42,369 nucleotides of DNA from a virus (IMGVR_UViG_3300036828_000686:66333-108701); one strand, 5' to 3'; numbered from the stretch's first letter, positions 21,619-28,945 are shown. Made by a program: numbers and translations. Notes: generated by a model not told the origin, from the letters alone.

Positions 21619-22635
21619 TTATTCCGGCGAGTCGTCCCACTGGTCGCGCTTGCGGCGCAGCAGCATGGCGGCGGCCTGCGGCCCGAACAGTCCCTTGCGG
21701 GGACCGGCCGGCGCGGAGATGGACGGGCGGTCGGTGCGGATGAACAGCTTCCGCATCTCACCGTCGTTGGCCAGCGCCCTGACCTCATCCACGGTGGCCT
21801 GCGCCCACGACGCCGCGGACTCGATCGCGGCCTGGGTGGCGCGGACCGCGGCGGTGGAGTCGGGGTAGCCGGGCGACAGCACGGGCGCCACGTCGATCAG
21901 CTCAACGCAGTGCAGGGTCCGGATCGGGAAGTTCCGCTCATCCACACCCCACTCGTCGCCACCCGGGGTGACCCGGAACGCGAACGAGCTGTAGCGGATG
22001 TCGCGGCGCTGGACCAGCTCGCGGATGTCGGCACGGGCCTCGGGCGGCTTGACCATGTAGTCCAGGCCGATCCGGTCAGGCTGGAGCCGCAGCGTGTCCG
22101 CCTCGGAGGTGCCGAGCACCATGTTGGAGTCGTGGTTGTAGCGGCACACGATCCCGGTGTTGTCGCTCATGTTCCGCCAGCCGCCCGCACGGACCTCGTC
22201 GAAGCAGTGCGGGGAGACGCGCTCCACGAAACCGCCGAGGTTCTTGGACTCGCGGGGGATGAACACGGTGGCGTAGCCGCCGATCCACTTCCCGTCGCTG
22301 CCCATGTCGCGGAACTCCAGCGGCTTGTCCAGGTCCCGGTACAGCGAGGTGACCCGCAGCTCGCGCAGCTCCGCGTCCATGGTGATGGAGTTCTCGCCCA
22401 CGTGGACGCCGAACTTCTTCGCCGCGGTCTTGATCTTGCTCATCGCCTTCTCACCGAAAGGCGACTGGCTGGCCCGTGCCAGCGCGTTGCGCACATGAGC
22501 GGCGTCATGCACAGGGAAATGACGCAGGCTCCGCGGGACCGTCTTCCCGTTGGAGTCCTTGCTGCCGCCGTCCTCGATGTAGGCGAATGCGCTGTCCGGC
22601 AGGTCATTCTGATCTGCCTGGGTGATAGCCGCCAT
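21619..22635 (-). CDS. HK97-family prohead protease with N-terminal helical extension
   Basis: GGYATVF, YNHD..MVLG, SSFAFRV, LIDVAPV..PGYPDS; N-terminal LPDSAFA...RHFPVHDAAHVRNALAR segment. Confidence 0.9.
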   Translation of the reverse strand: MAAITQADQNDLPDSAFAYIEDGGSKDSNGKTVPRSLRHFPVHDAAHVRNALARASQSPFGEKAMSKIKTAAKKFGVHVGENSITMDAELRELRVTSLYRDLDKPLEFRDMGSDGKWIGGYATVFIPRESKNLGGFVERVSPHCFDEVRAGGWRNMSDNTGIVCRYNHDSNMVLGTSEADTLRLQPDRIGLDYMVKPPEARADIRELVQRRDIRYSSFAFRVTPGGDEWGVDERNFPIRTLHCVELIDVAPVLSPGYPDSTAAVRATQAAIESAASWAQATVDEVRALANDGEMRKLFIRTDRPSISAPAGPRKGLFGPQAAAMLLRRKRDQWDDSPE

Positions 22636-24749
22636 CAGTGAGCCTTCCCGTTTACGGCGGCCAGCTGGCCGGCCATATCGAACTGCGTTGCCCTCTTCTG
22701 AAGGAGGACCATCGCGGCCGGGCCGAACAGAGGCTGCGCCTCCACTTGGCCCTCTTCTGGCGGGGAGGCGGCTCTCTCGCTCGCTGGAAGGTCTGCGAGT
22801 AGGGTATCAAGATCGCCGCAGGTTACTGCCTCTCCTGCCTTGCGATTTCGCTCATCAATTTCCGCCTGCCGCAGCCGGCCTGCCGCACCGGCCTCCGTAA
22901 TGCGCTTCCGGGCCCGCGCCCGGTCCTCATCAGAGGCCCGCATCCCGGCCGGCCCGAAGGTTTCACGTGAAACAGACGGGGCGACCCCATCGGTCATAAT
23001 CGGCAGGCCCTTGAACAGTTCCGCCAGCTGTCCCGTGGTCTCGGCGTTGAAGGCCCGGCTGATCCGCGCCGACGCTTCCTGGTCGCTGAGATGCCCCAGC
23101 CTGGCGTGCTCGCCCAGCATTGTGACCGCGGACTTGCGGTCCGAGGCCGTGGCCTTCGCGCCTGGCGGCCCGAACAGCAGGGCACGCTCGGACGTCAGCA
23201 GCCGGCCCAGGTACTGCTCGGGGGTCACGCCGACCGCGGGCTGGTCGTTGCCGGTATCCGCGGGCTCGCCCGGGTTGCCCACGTCGCCTGGCTCGTGCAT
23301 GGCAGGCGGGTTACTGCCGCTGCCGTTGCTGCTGCTGGCACCCTGGCCCTGCTCGGCTTCCGCCGCGGCACCCAGCGGCGTGCCCTTGAAAGCGGGCGCA
23401 TTGCTCGGCGGCGGCGCGGTCAGGCCCTTGCGCTGCATCTCCTCCAGCAGGGCGGCGATGTGGTCCACTTCCAGCATGACCTGCGGGACCAGTGCCTTCG
23501 GGATGGCCCGGGTCGTGGTCACCATGCGCTGCAGCACCGACAGCGGGATCGCGTCGTCGCCGCCGACGACCTTCGGCAGGTCGTCGTCGGCCCGGATCTC
23601 GTTCTGGGTCCGGGTGCCCATGGTGCGCTGCAGCTCATAGATCTGGTTGCGGGTATGCGGGTCGGTCTTCAGCAGCGCGTCGGTGTCGAACTTCGCGTAC
23701 TGGGTCGCGGGCAGCAGCATGGTGAACAGGTGCTCCCAGCGCGTCAGCCACGGCCGCAGCGTGTTCTGCAGCTCGTCCAGCTGGTCCATGGTCTGGTTGG
23801 TGTAGGTCAGCCCGTCGTTGCGGGTACCGCCGACCCGCTGCGGGCGCACCCCGAAGATCGCCGCGACCTGGGTCGCGTTCAGCTGCATGGCCTGGATGAA
23901 CGTCGCCTCGTTCGGCGGCACGGTCAGCGGCTTGTACTCCCAGTCCCGGCCGTAGACCAGCGGCTGGCGCAGCCGGATCGTGTCGGTGAGCCGCCTGCGG
24001 ATCTCATCGGCCTGGCTCTTGTCCACCTCTTCGGAGATGTTCTGGAACGTGCCCGGGGGGAAACCGCCGTTGGTGAACCAGTCAGCCGAGTACTTGAGGG
24101 TCTCCAGGCCCTGCGACCACAGCATGGAGAACGCGTGGATCGGGCTGATGCCCTCCACCCGGCCAGCCACGCTGAACGCCTTCATGTGGACCAGCTCGCT
24201 CTGCTCCACCAGCCGGCCGTTGTAGTAGATCTTCGCCCGGAACGGGTTCTCCGGCTGCTGCTCATCGTCGGTGACCGACATGCGGTCCGGCGGCAGCCAC
24301 GCGATTCCCGTGGGCAGGCCCTGGCCGTCCGGGCCGGGAATACCGGAACGGTTGGTGATCAGGCCCCAGGCGTTGCCCCACAGCAGCGCCGAGGTGCAGC
24401 CGGTGAACAGCCAGTCATACAGGGTGCCGGAAACCTGCGGGCCGCCGCCCGCGATGGGGCTGCCCAGCAGCATCGAAGAGTAGATGCGCTCTGAGCTACC
24501 ATCCGGTCGCTGTCTGTAAACTTTAATGGGCAAGCTCGCGATGGCGTCGGCTATAAATCTGACCGCCGAGTACACCGCGGCCAGGCCGAGCACGGTCTCC
24601 TGGCCCTGCACCTCACGAGAAGGGTGAACAGGTCAAGGGCCCCCGATGTTGAACTTCCAATACGGGTTAAATTACGCCACGGTTGCCAGGGGACATAAAA
24701 CTCCCCCGATAGTGCGCGTTTCAATATTGATGCGATCAACCAGGGACAT
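22635..24749 (-). CDS. HK97-family portal protein; predicted start ATG 24749 requiring three translational hops (698 aa), with C-terminal extension
   Basis: AVYSAVRFIADAIASLP, LLWGNAW, HMKAFS...GISPI, Q..QL.ATQVAAIFGV.P, L.PWL.RWE; RBS GAGGGGGGTGAGG before ATG 24749; ORF-track start GTG 24611 lacks a spaced RBS. Confidence 0.88.
24630..24701 (-). other. Three candidate translational bypass sites: GTT-TTA-T-GTC (24701-24692), AAT-TT-AAC (24673-24666), CCT-TGA-CCT (24638-24630)
   Basis: Each has synonymous take-off and landing codons flanking TTA or a stop in the A site; 7+5+6=18 nt restores the portal frame. Confidence 0.75.
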
Positions 24750-24773
24750 TGGGCCTCACCCCCCCTCGCGCAG

Positions 24774-24782
24774 TGCTACTTT
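24774..24782 (+). promoter_or_regulatory. Extended -10 promoter for a leaderless HNH transcript
   Basis: TGc-TACTTT, 7 nt before ATG 24790, no RBS. Confidence 0.5.
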
Positions 24783-24789
24783 TGAGCAC

Positions 24790-25323
24790 ATGCGTACTGG
24801 TAATGGCGGAGTGCGCCGCGGTCCTGACCTGACGCCGCGCACGCGGCATTCGGATGCTGGCCGCAGGCGCGACTGGGTGAGGACTCCGGCGTACAACTCC
24901 TGGGTACAGATGCGCTCCCGCTGCAACAACCCGAACTATCCGCGCTGGGCAGACTGGGGTGGTCGGGGCATCAAGGTTTGTGACCGCTGGGCCAGCTTCG
25001 AGAACTTCCTGGCCGACATGGGTGATCGGCCAGCTGGCACCACGCTTGAAAGGAAAGACAACGAGCGGGGATACGGTCCGGATAACTGCGTGTGGGCAAC
25101 TCCTGCGCAGCAAGCGAGGAATAAGCGGAGTACGCGCCTCACGCAGCGGAAGTGCCTGGAAGTCATCAGGCTGCTGGGCGAGGGGCTGGGCATCAAGGCC
25201 GCGGCCAGCAGGGCCGGGATCGAGCGTCACACGGTCGGCGTGATCGCGACAACGATCGAGACCCTGCACGCTGACCACGAACAGCCTCCTGAGAGGGATC
25301 GGCTAGGTTCGCGGCCAGGATGA
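24790..25323 (+). CDS. Free-standing HNH homing endonuclease, antisense to the structural operon
   Basis: YNSWVQMRSRCNNPNY..W..WGGRGIKVCDRW.SFENFLADMG.RP.GTTLERKDN..GY.PDNC.WAT..QQARNKR, typical phage HNH family. Confidence 0.88.
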   Translation: MRTGNGGVRRGPDLTPRTRHSDAGRRRDWVRTPAYNSWVQMRSRCNNPNYPRWADWGGRGIKVCDRWASFENFLADMGDRPAGTTLERKDNERGYGPDNCVWATPAQQARNKRSTRLTQRKCLEVIRLLGEGLGIKAAASRAGIERHTVGVIATTIETLHADHEQPPERDRLGSRPG

Positions 25324-27310: not shown

Positions 27311-28945
27311 TCAGAAGACGGAGTTGAGGACGTCGTACCCGCGGCCGAACTTGCGTGCCGCCCACACGGCCATTGTGCCCGCGCAGAGTGGCGAGATGTC
27401 CTCGGAGGTGTCACGCCGCGCCCACGCATGCTGGCCGTCACCCACGTCACGCTGCACCGCGGAGGCCACCGCCTTGGTCAGGTCCCCGTGGTTGGAATGC
27501 AGGATCGTCCGTGTGGGCTTGTCGGATTCCCGGGATTCGGGGACACCCAGGCCGCGCAGGAACTGGGCGTGGCCCTGCGCCACCTCGCGCAGCTTGCAGG
27601 TCTGCAGCACGTTCGACAGGGACGTGTCGTTCTCGATCGCGGGGATCAGCTCCGAGCCGGGCCCGACCGGGTCGATGCCGATCACGGCGACCCGCTGCCG
27701 GGACTTCAGCTCGCGGAGCCGCGGCAGAATCCAGTCCACGCCCGCCCGGTGGTCGTCCCAGGTGCCGTCGCTGCCGATCTCCAGCCAGCAGGTCCGTTCC
27801 GGCAGGACACCGTCGTCGCCAGCGGGGCCCTGGTCGAGCAGGCCGGCGATGGCGATGCACGCGGCGCTCTGGTCCGGGGTGATGTCCACCCAGATCGCGA
27901 TCCGCTTCGGCCGCGGCATCTCACCGGGGCCCTTCCAGGCGCACGCATCCCAGTCGTGCCGCGGGATCACCGCGAACGACTGGTCTTCCACCGGCCAGTC
28001 ACCGATGCCGAGGCGCTCGCGGTCGAACCCGGCGGCAGCCATCTTCAGGTGCTCGCGGCTGATGTGCTCCTGGCTGATCCGGATGTTCATCCCGGGGTTC
28101 GCGCGGGCCCACGACTCGGGGCTGCCGCGGCGGTCATGGCCGTGGGTGCAGTACGGCAGCCTGCGGTCCGGGCACAGGTCGGGGCAGAACTCGCATGACC
28201 ATTCGGCAAACATGAGGGTCGGGTCGTCACCCGCGATACCGCGGTTGCGCACCGACGACAGCTGGGTCGAGTCGGGGAAGCCCGCGGAGCCGGTGAACCA
28301 CATCTGCGGGTTGGCCACCGCGGACATGGTCGGCATGGAGGCGTCCACGTCCTCCTGGGCCAGGATCATCGCCTCGTCGTAGTAGACGGCGTCGGCGGTG
28401 AACGACCGGCCGGAGCCGCGGGAGCGGGCCAGGAACCGCAGCCGGGGTGACACGGACTTGCGGACCTGCACGCCGCGGGCACCGAAGATCAGCGTGGGGG
28501 AGGCCCGCAGCTCGATGGCTTCCTCACCGTGGGAGGTGCGGATACCGCGGGGCTTGACCTTGCGCATGAGTTCGTCGTTGGACTCGATGGTGGCCTGCAT
28601 CCGGCGGAAGTGCTCGGAGGCGGCCTTGAACTCGTGCGCGGTGTGGATCTGCAGGGACTCGCGGATGGTGAACAGCCCGGCGAGCTGCCTGGCTTCCAGG
28701 CCCGCATTTTTACCGTTCTGGCGGGGGCAGATCCAGCAGACCTCAAAGGCGGCCCAGTGGCCGTCCTCGCGGGTGCCCATCGAGTTGGCCAGCGCCCACT
28801 GCTGCCACTCGTCGAGGATCAGCCGGTTGTCCCTGGCCAGCTCGACGGCGTCCTCGCCAGCCGCATACGAGCAGGCGTAGGGGACCGACGCCAGGCGGGG
28901 GCGCTGATTGCCGAAAAGCTCCGGCTCGATGGGCTCTGCGGTCAC
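27311..28945 (-). CDS. terL: Terminase large subunit
   Basis: Walker A PRQNGKN, TAHEFK, Walker B VYYDEA, coupling motif TGSAG, W.RANPG, nuclease WVD...DISPL.A. Confidence 0.93.
   Translation of the reverse strand: MTAEPIEPELFGNQRPRLASVPYACSYAAGEDAVELARDNRLILDEWQQWALANSMGTREDGHWAAFEVCWICPRQNGKNAGLEARQLAGLFTIRESLQIHTAHEFKAASEHFRRMQATIESNDELMRKVKPRGIRTSHGEEAIELRASPTLIFGARGVQVRKSVSPRLRFLARSRGSGRSFTADAVYYDEAMILAQEDVDASMPTMSAVANPQMWFTGSAGFPDSTQLSSVRNRGIAGDDPTLMFAEWSCEFCPDLCPDRRLPYCTHGHDRRGSPESWARANPGMNIRISQEHISREHLKMAAAGFDRERLGIGDWPVEDQSFAVIPRHDWDACAWKGPGEMPRPKRIAIWVDITPDQSAACIAIAGLLDQGPAGDDGVLPERTCWLEIGSDGTWDDHRAGVDWILPRLRELKSRQRVAVIGIDPVGPGSELIPAIENDTSLSNVLQTCKLREVAQGHAQFLRGLGVPESRESDKPTRTILHSNHGDLTKAVASAVQRDVGDGQHAWARRDTSEDISPLCAGTMAVWAARKFGRGYDVLNSVF

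Follow-up and report, generated by a model that had tools for sequence, protein, structure and literature searches.

The soil phage DNA stretch IMGVR_UViG_3300036828_000686:66333-108701 (42,369 nucleotides (nt), here called the window) carries a portal gene whose first part is interrupted by three frame-breaking micro-inserts and, 40 nt from its start codon and on the opposite strand, a free-standing gene for a homing-endonuclease-like protein. Our comparison with related phages points, with a probability of roughly 0.45, to a nuclease/target-immunity relation between the two genes, in which resistant portal tracts that are tolerated by ribosome hopping would spread with or without the nuclease gene.

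Portal inserts and the nuclease-like gene in related lineages

The HK97-family portal gene with its C-terminal DUF1707 extension lies on the minus strand (22635..24749; PF04860 E 1e-53, TIGR01537, DUF1707). Its ATG (24747-24749) opens a conserved M-S-L-V-D-R-I and is preceded, 6-10 nt upstream, by a GGAGG-like Shine-Dalgarno run that is also conserved in relatives, and the frame that follows runs into TAA and TGA stops. Removal of 18 nt gives a single portal frame of 698 amino acids with the terminal stop only, and residues 1-46 of this gap-free protein match the uninterrupted N-terminus of the nearest relative (L002) and of other relatives. The three micro-inserts described in an earlier note, made from the sequence of the window alone, proved to be real differences, as they are the only indels versus L002 and account for exactly 18 gap columns in 24421-24749. 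In uninterrupted portals (L002, L004-9, L016, L017 and others) the flanks of the insert sites are adjacent.

All three sites lie on the minus strand and can be read as candidate hops. At hop 1, GTT-TTAT-GTC (+7, 24692..24701), the take-off codon GTT (24701-24699) places TTA in the A site and the gap is 7 nt (24698-24692, landing codon GTC); the same site and type recur in L036, L040, L055, L288 and L316. Hop 2, AAT-TT-AAC (+5, 24666..24673), has the take-off codon AAT (24673-24671), again TTA in the A site and a gap of 5 nt (24670-24666, landing codon AAC), and recurs in site and type in L297 (AAT-TT-AAT). Hop 3, CCT-TGA-CCT (+6, 24630..24638), differs in that the take-off codon CCT (24638-24636) is followed by a TGA stop in the A site, with a gap of 6 nt (24635-24630, landing codon CCT), and it is the sole stop-type insert among the 58 distinct events in the family. 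With three frame-breaking inserts, full-length portal protein would be obtained only via three short ribosome hops (+7, +5, +6). A hairpin, GGGGGA/UCCCCU, encloses gap 1 around GUUUUAUG (window 24689-24707, minus), and the 161-nt mRNA segment as a whole is no more structured than shuffled sequence (z -0.72). Hairpins were also seen at or beside other gaps, namely UAGGGAUU-AUGU-AAUCCCUA in L003 and AUUAC-UAAC-GUAAU in L010, and in L036 GGGGAG...CUCCCC encloses a 15-nt gap with a non-matching landing codon. Of the six lineages with a hop at the Val codon, three have GGG GGA as their Gly-Gly codons.

Portal-based scans of viral and metagenome contigs, using the best 80 of 237 viral and the best 80 of 125 metagenome matches, gave about 190 loci; the 149 usable ones form 76 lineage clusters and were scored by frameshift-aware alignment of a conserved 27-codon motif, IGGVPWQPWRNPYWKFNIGGPVHPSRE. 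The nuclease-like gene was present in 11 of the 76 clusters, always antisense, directly upstream of the portal gene and together with at least one micro-insert. Among the gene-free lineages (n=66) 32 had inserts and 34 were intact, and the comparison of 11/11 with 32/66 gives a one-sided Fisher p of 0.00086. Inserts as such recur in 43 lineage clusters from many independent samples. On the portal tree we counted at least 11 changes of state for the nuclease gene and at least 23 for the inserts. Independent pairs differing in the gene differed in insert state the same way in 6.9 cases and the opposite way in 0, with 4.1 ties, and the phylogeny-aware sign test gave a median p of 0.016 (range 0.004-0.125). 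The support for an association between gene and inserts is real, not overwhelming. One of the eleven gene-bearing lineages, L115, was found via the nuclease gene instead of the portal and is also insert-bearing, and gene-bearing and naive alleles share one sample (3300046517; L013 and L005).

The earlier note had taken the nuclease gene and the portal 5' end for one mobile cassette. One half of this idea stands, as the gene is a discrete unit, variably present at a fixed site, and among the genes between terminase and portal it is the only one that differs as discrete presence or absence between close relatives. The other half does not: because the inserts vary among the gene-bearing lineages and are found in 32 lineages that lack the gene, they form no conserved unit with it. 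The survey of relatives that the note had proposed cuts both ways, since every gene-bearing lineage has inserts, and the insert-bearing lineages lacking the gene count against the proposal by the note's own yardstick, the occurrence of inserts independently of the nuclease. Elements of this kind are nevertheless expected to lose the homing gene at a later stage and to leave the immune target behind. In loci with inserts but no nuclease gene, the antisense open reading frames (ORFs) before the portal showed no match to a nuclease, and a scan with the nuclease type of L087 gave 49 loci, none adjoining this portal family. In two insert-bearing loci the place of the nuclease gene is taken by an antisense gene of PHROG 4652, a family of unassigned function (L084:237-854 (-) and L080:611-1240 (-)); the remaining ORFs had no hit, or hits unrelated to nucleases.

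The inserts follow distinct codon rules. In 51 of the 58 distinct inserts TTA comes directly after the take-off codon, and in 50 of 58 the landing codon matches the take-off codon at two or more of the three positions (p 2e-19 versus a generous null of 0.29), the pairs in the window being GTT to GTC, AAT to AAC and CCT to CCT. At the take-off site, codons that pair weakly at the third position are preferred (CGA 16 times; NNT 13 vs NNC 2), whereas in the genome background NNC exceeds NNT about seven- to ten-fold or more. The inserts are 1-16 nt long, use 14 take-off positions within the one 27-codon motif and number up to four per gene (L036). TTA was absent (0) from the 24,651 portal-body codons of 72 lineages. 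The 31 tRNA genes of the phage, in an array outside the window (G000:C1:19655-26075), include three Leu tRNAs (CAG, GAG and CAA) as well as Lys(UUU) and Arg(UCU), and none for Leu(UAA). The take-off tRNAs of the three hops in the window (Val-GAC, Asn-GUU, Pro-UGG/CGG) are all phage-encoded. A scan of the 108.7-kilobase (kb) genome for in-frame TTA, with frames called by G+C at third codon positions (GC3), was swamped by antisense frames and reverse-complemented TAA stops.

Changes in the motif were 334 synonymous to 204 non-synonymous across inserts and 232 to 195 among intact alleles, and the motif of L036, with four inserts, differs from that of L018 by 14 synonymous and 0 non-synonymous changes (codon alignment read by eye). 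The motif is under purifying selection across the inserts. The matching rule favours a hop, with re-pairing of the peptidyl-tRNA, over a +1/+2 shift in which the landing codon is decoded afresh, and the inserts appear as candidate hopped-over gaps instead of signs of gene decay. After ATG 24749 the frame, in a metagenome-derived contig, meets TAA and TGA stops and is shifted twice, which could also mean that the portal gene is simply broken, through decay of a provirus or an assembly or sequencing error, and that the upstream gene is irrelevant. This explanation, however, leaves little room for the same kind of insert in 43 lineage clusters with strict codon rules, for inter-insert segments that keep the conserved peptide with mostly synonymous change, for a conserved start codon and Shine-Dalgarno run, or for a 108.7-kb phage, estimated to be 93% complete, with an otherwise intact head-gene module; we give it next to no credence.

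The nuclease-like protein and its candidate promoter

The free-standing antisense gene of the earlier note was recovered as an ORF of 177 codons on the plus strand (24790..25323; ATG 24790, stop 25321-25323), between a gene for a 185-residue protein and the portal gene. The divergent spacer (24750..24789) is shared by the Shine-Dalgarno-like run of the portal on the minus strand and a -10 box of the endonuclease-like gene on the plus strand. The protein matches PHROG families annotated as HNH/restriction endonuclease (E 1e-38 to 1e-17), the best being 8790, 3377 and 374 (E 1e-38 to 1e-35). Its AlphaFold model has a pLDDT (predicted local distance difference test) of 85 and shows an HNH-annotated core (residues about 27-115) followed by a helix-turn-helix (HTH) in the C-terminal third, a part that resembles HTH domains also in structure comparison. 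As to the beta-beta-alpha-metal fold of HNH enzymes, the core of the model has strands at 85-88 and 100-103 and then a helix at 105-110, and this core shows a modest match to PacI. A Foldseek search of the model against the PDB returned nothing at E <= 0.001, and a profile search of PDB sequences gave weak HTH hits only; in BFVD its structural neighbours are phage proteins that bear the names HNH endonuclease, HTH homing endonuclease or AP2. Conserved motif residues in a 48-sequence alignment of the family are R88, N99, C100, Q108 and N111. The name HNH is thus an annotation with a plausible fold behind it, and nuclease activity of the protein is putative.

Members of the family were found in 927 phage records and on 594 stretches of viral contigs, for the most part away from portals; they carry AP2, NUMOD3 and HTH domains, and in APSE phages their genes interrupt those for DNA polymerase. 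Most members also have an N-terminal Cys-rich domain (CxCDCG...SCGC) that the protein in the window lacks. A homologue with 69% identity and equal length, together with an N-terminal MRTG conserved in L010 and L015, supports ATG 24790 as the start. In the public gene call (24790-24910 region) the protein has 137 residues, starts at the internal Met41 and loses a conserved YNSWxxM motif; the 177-residue form is favoured, as both the homologues and the -10 box agree with it.

This box, the extended -10-like TGCTACTTT (24774..24782, plus), had been proposed earlier as the gene's own leaderless promoter, and comparison lends the proposal support. Its hexamer, TACTTT, ends 7 nt before ATG 24790, and a TAnnnT hexamer at 6-7 nt upstream of the start codon is shared by all eight nuclease-gene-bearing lineages that were examined for it (TACTTT, TACCAT twice, TACTAT, TAGAAT, TATGAT, TATAAT and TATCAT). 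The conserved position goes far beyond one chance match, fits a leaderless transcript and gives good comparative support to the box as a candidate promoter of the gene.

In HK97 the HNH protein gp74 acts with terminase and portal in cos cleavage. The HNH annotation and the position between terminase and portal genes would suit a packaging-associated, non-mobile protein of this sort, but of 76 related lineage clusters with this same terminase and portal 65 lack the gene; it is encoded on the other strand, behind a promoter-like box of its own, and has a homing-type HTH tail and a family with AP2, NUMOD3 and HTH members that interrupt DNA polymerase genes in APSE phages. A packaging role thus seems very improbable. 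Both the pseudogene and the packaging readings were set aside as unlikely, the first in view of the recurrent, codon-ruled inserts and the second in view of variable gene presence and the opposite strand.

Local recombination and competing explanations

The portal 5' end is a recoded, recombinant tract (24477..24749, minus) with synonymous codons rich in third-position A/T and low identity to L002. With the 18 inserted bases removed, GC3 is 0.685 in codons 1-92 and 0.883 in the rest (Fisher p 4e-6), in agreement with the A/T-rich codons pointed out in the earlier note. Along the gene GC3 runs at 0.55-0.85 in the 5' tract and at 0.9-1.0 downstream, so that the breakpoint for which the note had suggested looking is found near codon 85-90 (about 24470-24480). 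A breakpoint is also evident in the comparison with L002, to which the first 90 or so codons are 81% identical overall: identity is 82.5% in 24612-24749, 75.6% in 24477-24611, 91% in 24421-24476 and 96.5% in 23400-24420. The protein encoded by the tract is almost unchanged, and the differing codons of the window mostly end in A/T where those of L002 and the outgroups end in G/C. A second stretch of low GC3 (0.45-0.65) covers portal codons about 571-660 (window 22770-23040) in the C-terminal extension with its DUF1707 units, and identity to L002 dips at 22864-22923.

Similar patches were observed between other close relatives. L003, with two inserts, and the intact L004 show 100% identity over 1.3 kb on the downstream side and, upstream, between about -250 and -150, and differ by the inserts and about 26 mostly synonymous substitutions in a patch of about 270 nt that starts in the pre-portal spacer; no better donor than L004 for this patch was found among the sampled lineages. 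L087, which has the nuclease gene, and L084 are 94-100% identical per 50-nt window from the take-off site on and unrelated upstream of it. Between L010 and L017 the nuclease gene is a clean indel of about 550 nt, and identity is lowered in the first 170 or so portal nucleotides (+67 to +167). Over the 45 codons that follow the motif, GC3 falls in gene-bearing lineages alone (-0.11 vs -0.02, p 0.05). A viral-contig scan with the 185-residue neighbour gave no relative that shows the far boundary of the recombinant tract in the window.

These observations can be joined in the following model. A selfish homing-endonuclease-like gene, apparently with its own leaderless promoter, would have settled in antisense orientation next to the portal gene, with a conserved small gene on its other side. 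The first 90 or so portal codons are a recombinant, synonymously recoded tract with three frame-breaking micro-inserts, each made of a weakly paired take-off codon, a hungry UUA or a UGA stop, and a landing codon for the same tRNA. On the pattern of T4 mobA/gene 60, the enzyme would recognise the highly conserved DNA encoding GGVPWQPWRNPYWKFNIGGP in naive portal alleles. The inserts, perhaps with nearby synonymous changes, would break this recognition site and leave the protein unchanged, and repair of a cut allele would copy the resistant tract, whether or not the nuclease gene is copied along with it. Copying without the gene would explain the inserts in many nuclease-free relatives.

Several results weigh against the nuclease/target-immunity relation. 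The 177-residue protein matched no Pfam or NCBIfam family at E <= 0.01, HNH models included, and the sole solved chain found over its core, the HNH enzyme PacI, is a modest match (Z 6.4, root-mean-square deviation 3.4, 80 residues). No His is invariant, or nearly so, across the 48 aligned sequences, and an invariant Arg (R88) occupies the presumed position of the catalytic His, as placed by eye. In the first 95 loci the phylogeny-aware sign test was non-significant (median p 0.125), and it reached significance only in the enlarged set. Gene-bearing lineages differ in the sites, lengths and sequences of their inserts, and in 32 lineages inserts occur where the gene is absent. L016, which has no nuclease gene and an intact portal, yet carries a candidate hop in its gene for the large terminase subunit (terL), which suggests that hops are possible without a nuclease nearby. 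Other mosaic patches also separate the window from L002, no better donor than L002 for the 5' tract was found among the sampled lineages, and the L002 contig stops 20 nt before the portal start, so the upstream nuclease position falls outside it.

Part of these results would be equally at home if the two features were independent, the UUA and stop hops being regulatory or tolerated recoding of these actinophages and the nuclease-like gene a selfish lodger in a permissive spacer. Portal synthesis would then be tied to scarcity of the UUA-decoding tRNA, after the model of the Streptomyces phage phiHau3, and gene and inserts would occur together for indirect reasons, such as a common ecology or lineage. 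The insert-bearing lineages without the gene fit such independence, as does the site in L016, where the terL frame changes at GAG-T-GAG with TGA in the A site (L016:360-395), between '...AWDRRDE' and 'MPRPDRV...', two segments that directly adjoin in the terminase of the window; the site is a candidate +4 stop-hop or +1 shift. UUA bypass of the phiHau3 type is likewise described without a link to a homing endonuclease (PMC10732093), and 31 phage tRNA genes with none for UUA would fit a deliberate hungry codon. The nuclease family, furthermore, inserts in many unrelated contexts. Independence leaves unaccounted for, however, that all 11 gene-bearing lineages have inserts and that no pair differs the opposite way. 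At least 23 changes of insert state fall at 14 codons packed into the 27-codon motif, with no TTA elsewhere in the portal, and packing of this kind looks like selection on, or damage to, one stretch of DNA and not like a regulatory switch. Up to four inserts in one gene (L036) would also multiply the cost of hopping, and the recombination patches centre on the inserts. We find independence of the two features rather unlikely, while counting it as the main competitor.

A variant of the nuclease/target-immunity relation takes the micro-inserts for scars, error-prone small end-joining fill-ins left at supposed repeated nuclease cuts, of which this essential gene would retain only the hoppable ones (TTA-first, with a matching landing codon); immunity would come as a side effect instead of being built into a cassette. 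The great diversity of the inserts in length (1-16 nt), sequence and position within about 75 nt is what such an origin would produce, and the unrelated upstream sequence that joins right at the take-off site in L087/L084, as well as the A/T-enriched flanks, would agree with it. Actinobacteria also possess Ku/LigD end joining. The many synonymous substitutions around the inserts (L003/L004, window/L002) speak instead for homologous exchange with a diverged allele and not for local fill-in. A scar origin appears improbable on balance.

Returning to the nuclease/target-immunity relation, a broader form of it can be put forward tentatively, as a possibility that we would not yet favour: UUA hops may have arisen repeatedly in soil actinophage portals as a general vaccination of an invariant coding motif against a homing nuclease. 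The insert would destroy the DNA site of the nuclease, the ribosome would erase the insert from the protein, and resistant tracts would spread by gene conversion, whether or not the nuclease gene goes along.

The locus lies in a head module. The window is the last 42 kb of the 108.7-kb IMG/VR record, which has 67% G+C. The minus strand of the window encodes the large terminase subunit (27311-28945), a small membrane protein, a papain-like peptidase, the 185-residue protein, the portal and a prohead protease, and the genes for the membrane protein, the peptidase and the 185-residue protein recur between terminase and portal in many relatives. A nucleotide search of phage GenBank records with the locus gave only short matches, inside the nuclease gene. 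A scan of genome contigs with the single portal sequence found no relative, and one with the portal alignment found one, a distant prophage in Fodinicola. In some relatives broken tblastn matches indicate insertions of 0.3-1 kb in the coding regions of portal, terminase or protease (L028:4825-5852, L030:3194-4092, L018:1140-1447 and L030:5088-6013), which may be inteins or other mobile elements.

Significance and comparison with known bypass systems

Programmed bypassing has long rested on one well-studied case, gene 60 of phage T4, for which the link to MobA is the sole functional rationale offered. The phiHau3 terminase is a second case, barely noticed and read as regulation, and the present locus joins both ideas. 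It offers dozens of independently derived candidate short hops in one motif of an essential gene, together with their codon rules. If the immunity is true, it would explain why there are bypass elements at all, and studies of mechanism would gain a large set of naturally varied take-off codons, gaps and landing codons. The prediction would follow that in uncultured actinophages head genes, the portal among them, are routinely mis-annotated as truncated or broken. If the vaccination idea holds, bypassing would have a recurrent adaptive role in the arms race between phages, beyond an oddity of T4. Should the immunity fail, the family would still be the largest comparative set for UUA-dependent hopping. 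The searchable literature yielded neither hops in portal genes nor a connection between UUA hops and an endonuclease.

In T4 mobA/gene 60 an HNH homing endonuclease and a 50-nt translational bypass travel together, and it is the bypass insert, not point polymorphisms, that blocks nicking by MobA, according to bioRxiv 10.1101/2022.08.31.505936 (Manning & Atkins, for the block citing Bonocora 2011 PNAS). The present locus resembles this system in having a free-standing, HNH-annotated selfish gene beside an essential, conserved coding stretch with untranslated bases, in the variable presence of the gene among close relatives and in the diverged flanks that adjoin the element. As in gene 60, bypass would let foreign DNA sit within an invariant protein motif. 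Unlike the 50-nt gap of gene 60, the gaps are 5-7 nt here and 1-16 nt in relatives, with up to four per gene, and in place of a stop, a take-off stem-loop and a nascent-peptide signal the trigger would mostly be a rare UUA (two of the three inserts in the window are TTA-first). The nuclease gene here is antisense and upstream of an unsplit target gene, its product is of another family, one that gives no Pfam HNH hit, and the inserts are not a constant component of the element, being common also where it is missing.

For phiHau3 and two prophages, a UUA-first bypass of 7-10 nt has been proposed in the large terminase gene and partly shown experimentally, with no endonuclease link, and such blocks were present in 3 of 100 terminase genes (Smith et al. 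2013, in Antonov et al. 2023, PMC10732093). Common to both cases are short, frame-disrupting, UUA-first blocks in a head-packaging gene of a high-G+C actinophage, flanks that are adjacent in block-free relatives, a landing codon for the take-off tRNA and an apparent avoidance of UUA elsewhere. The gene is a portal here and a terminase there, and about half of the 76 lineages are affected here versus 3 of 100. The present family further differs from phiHau3 in its 14 take-off positions in one 27-codon motif, one hop across a stop codon and the statistical link to a neighbouring nuclease-like gene. The annotation of phiHau3 lists an HNH gene (gp1) 1.4 kb upstream of the terminase and on the same strand.

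Short hops over stop or hungry codons flanked by matched take-off and landing codons have been recorded with reporters in E. coli (Weiss et al. 1987, cited in PMC10732093). The site CCT-TGA-CCT has exactly that design, with identical codons around the stop and a +6 hop; unlike the reporters, it is a natural site in an essential gene and stands in series with two other hops.

Free-standing homing endonucleases of phages, such as those of the T4 seg and mob genes, co-convert flanking markers. Here too a selfish gene is intergenic, its assumed target lies in a neighbouring conserved gene and the flanking tracts are diverged; the difference is that immunity would come via insertions tolerated by hopping and not from point polymorphisms alone. 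Taken together, the comparisons suggest that the locus may be regarded as a functional blend of T4 mobA/gene 60 and phiHau3, a strict member of neither.

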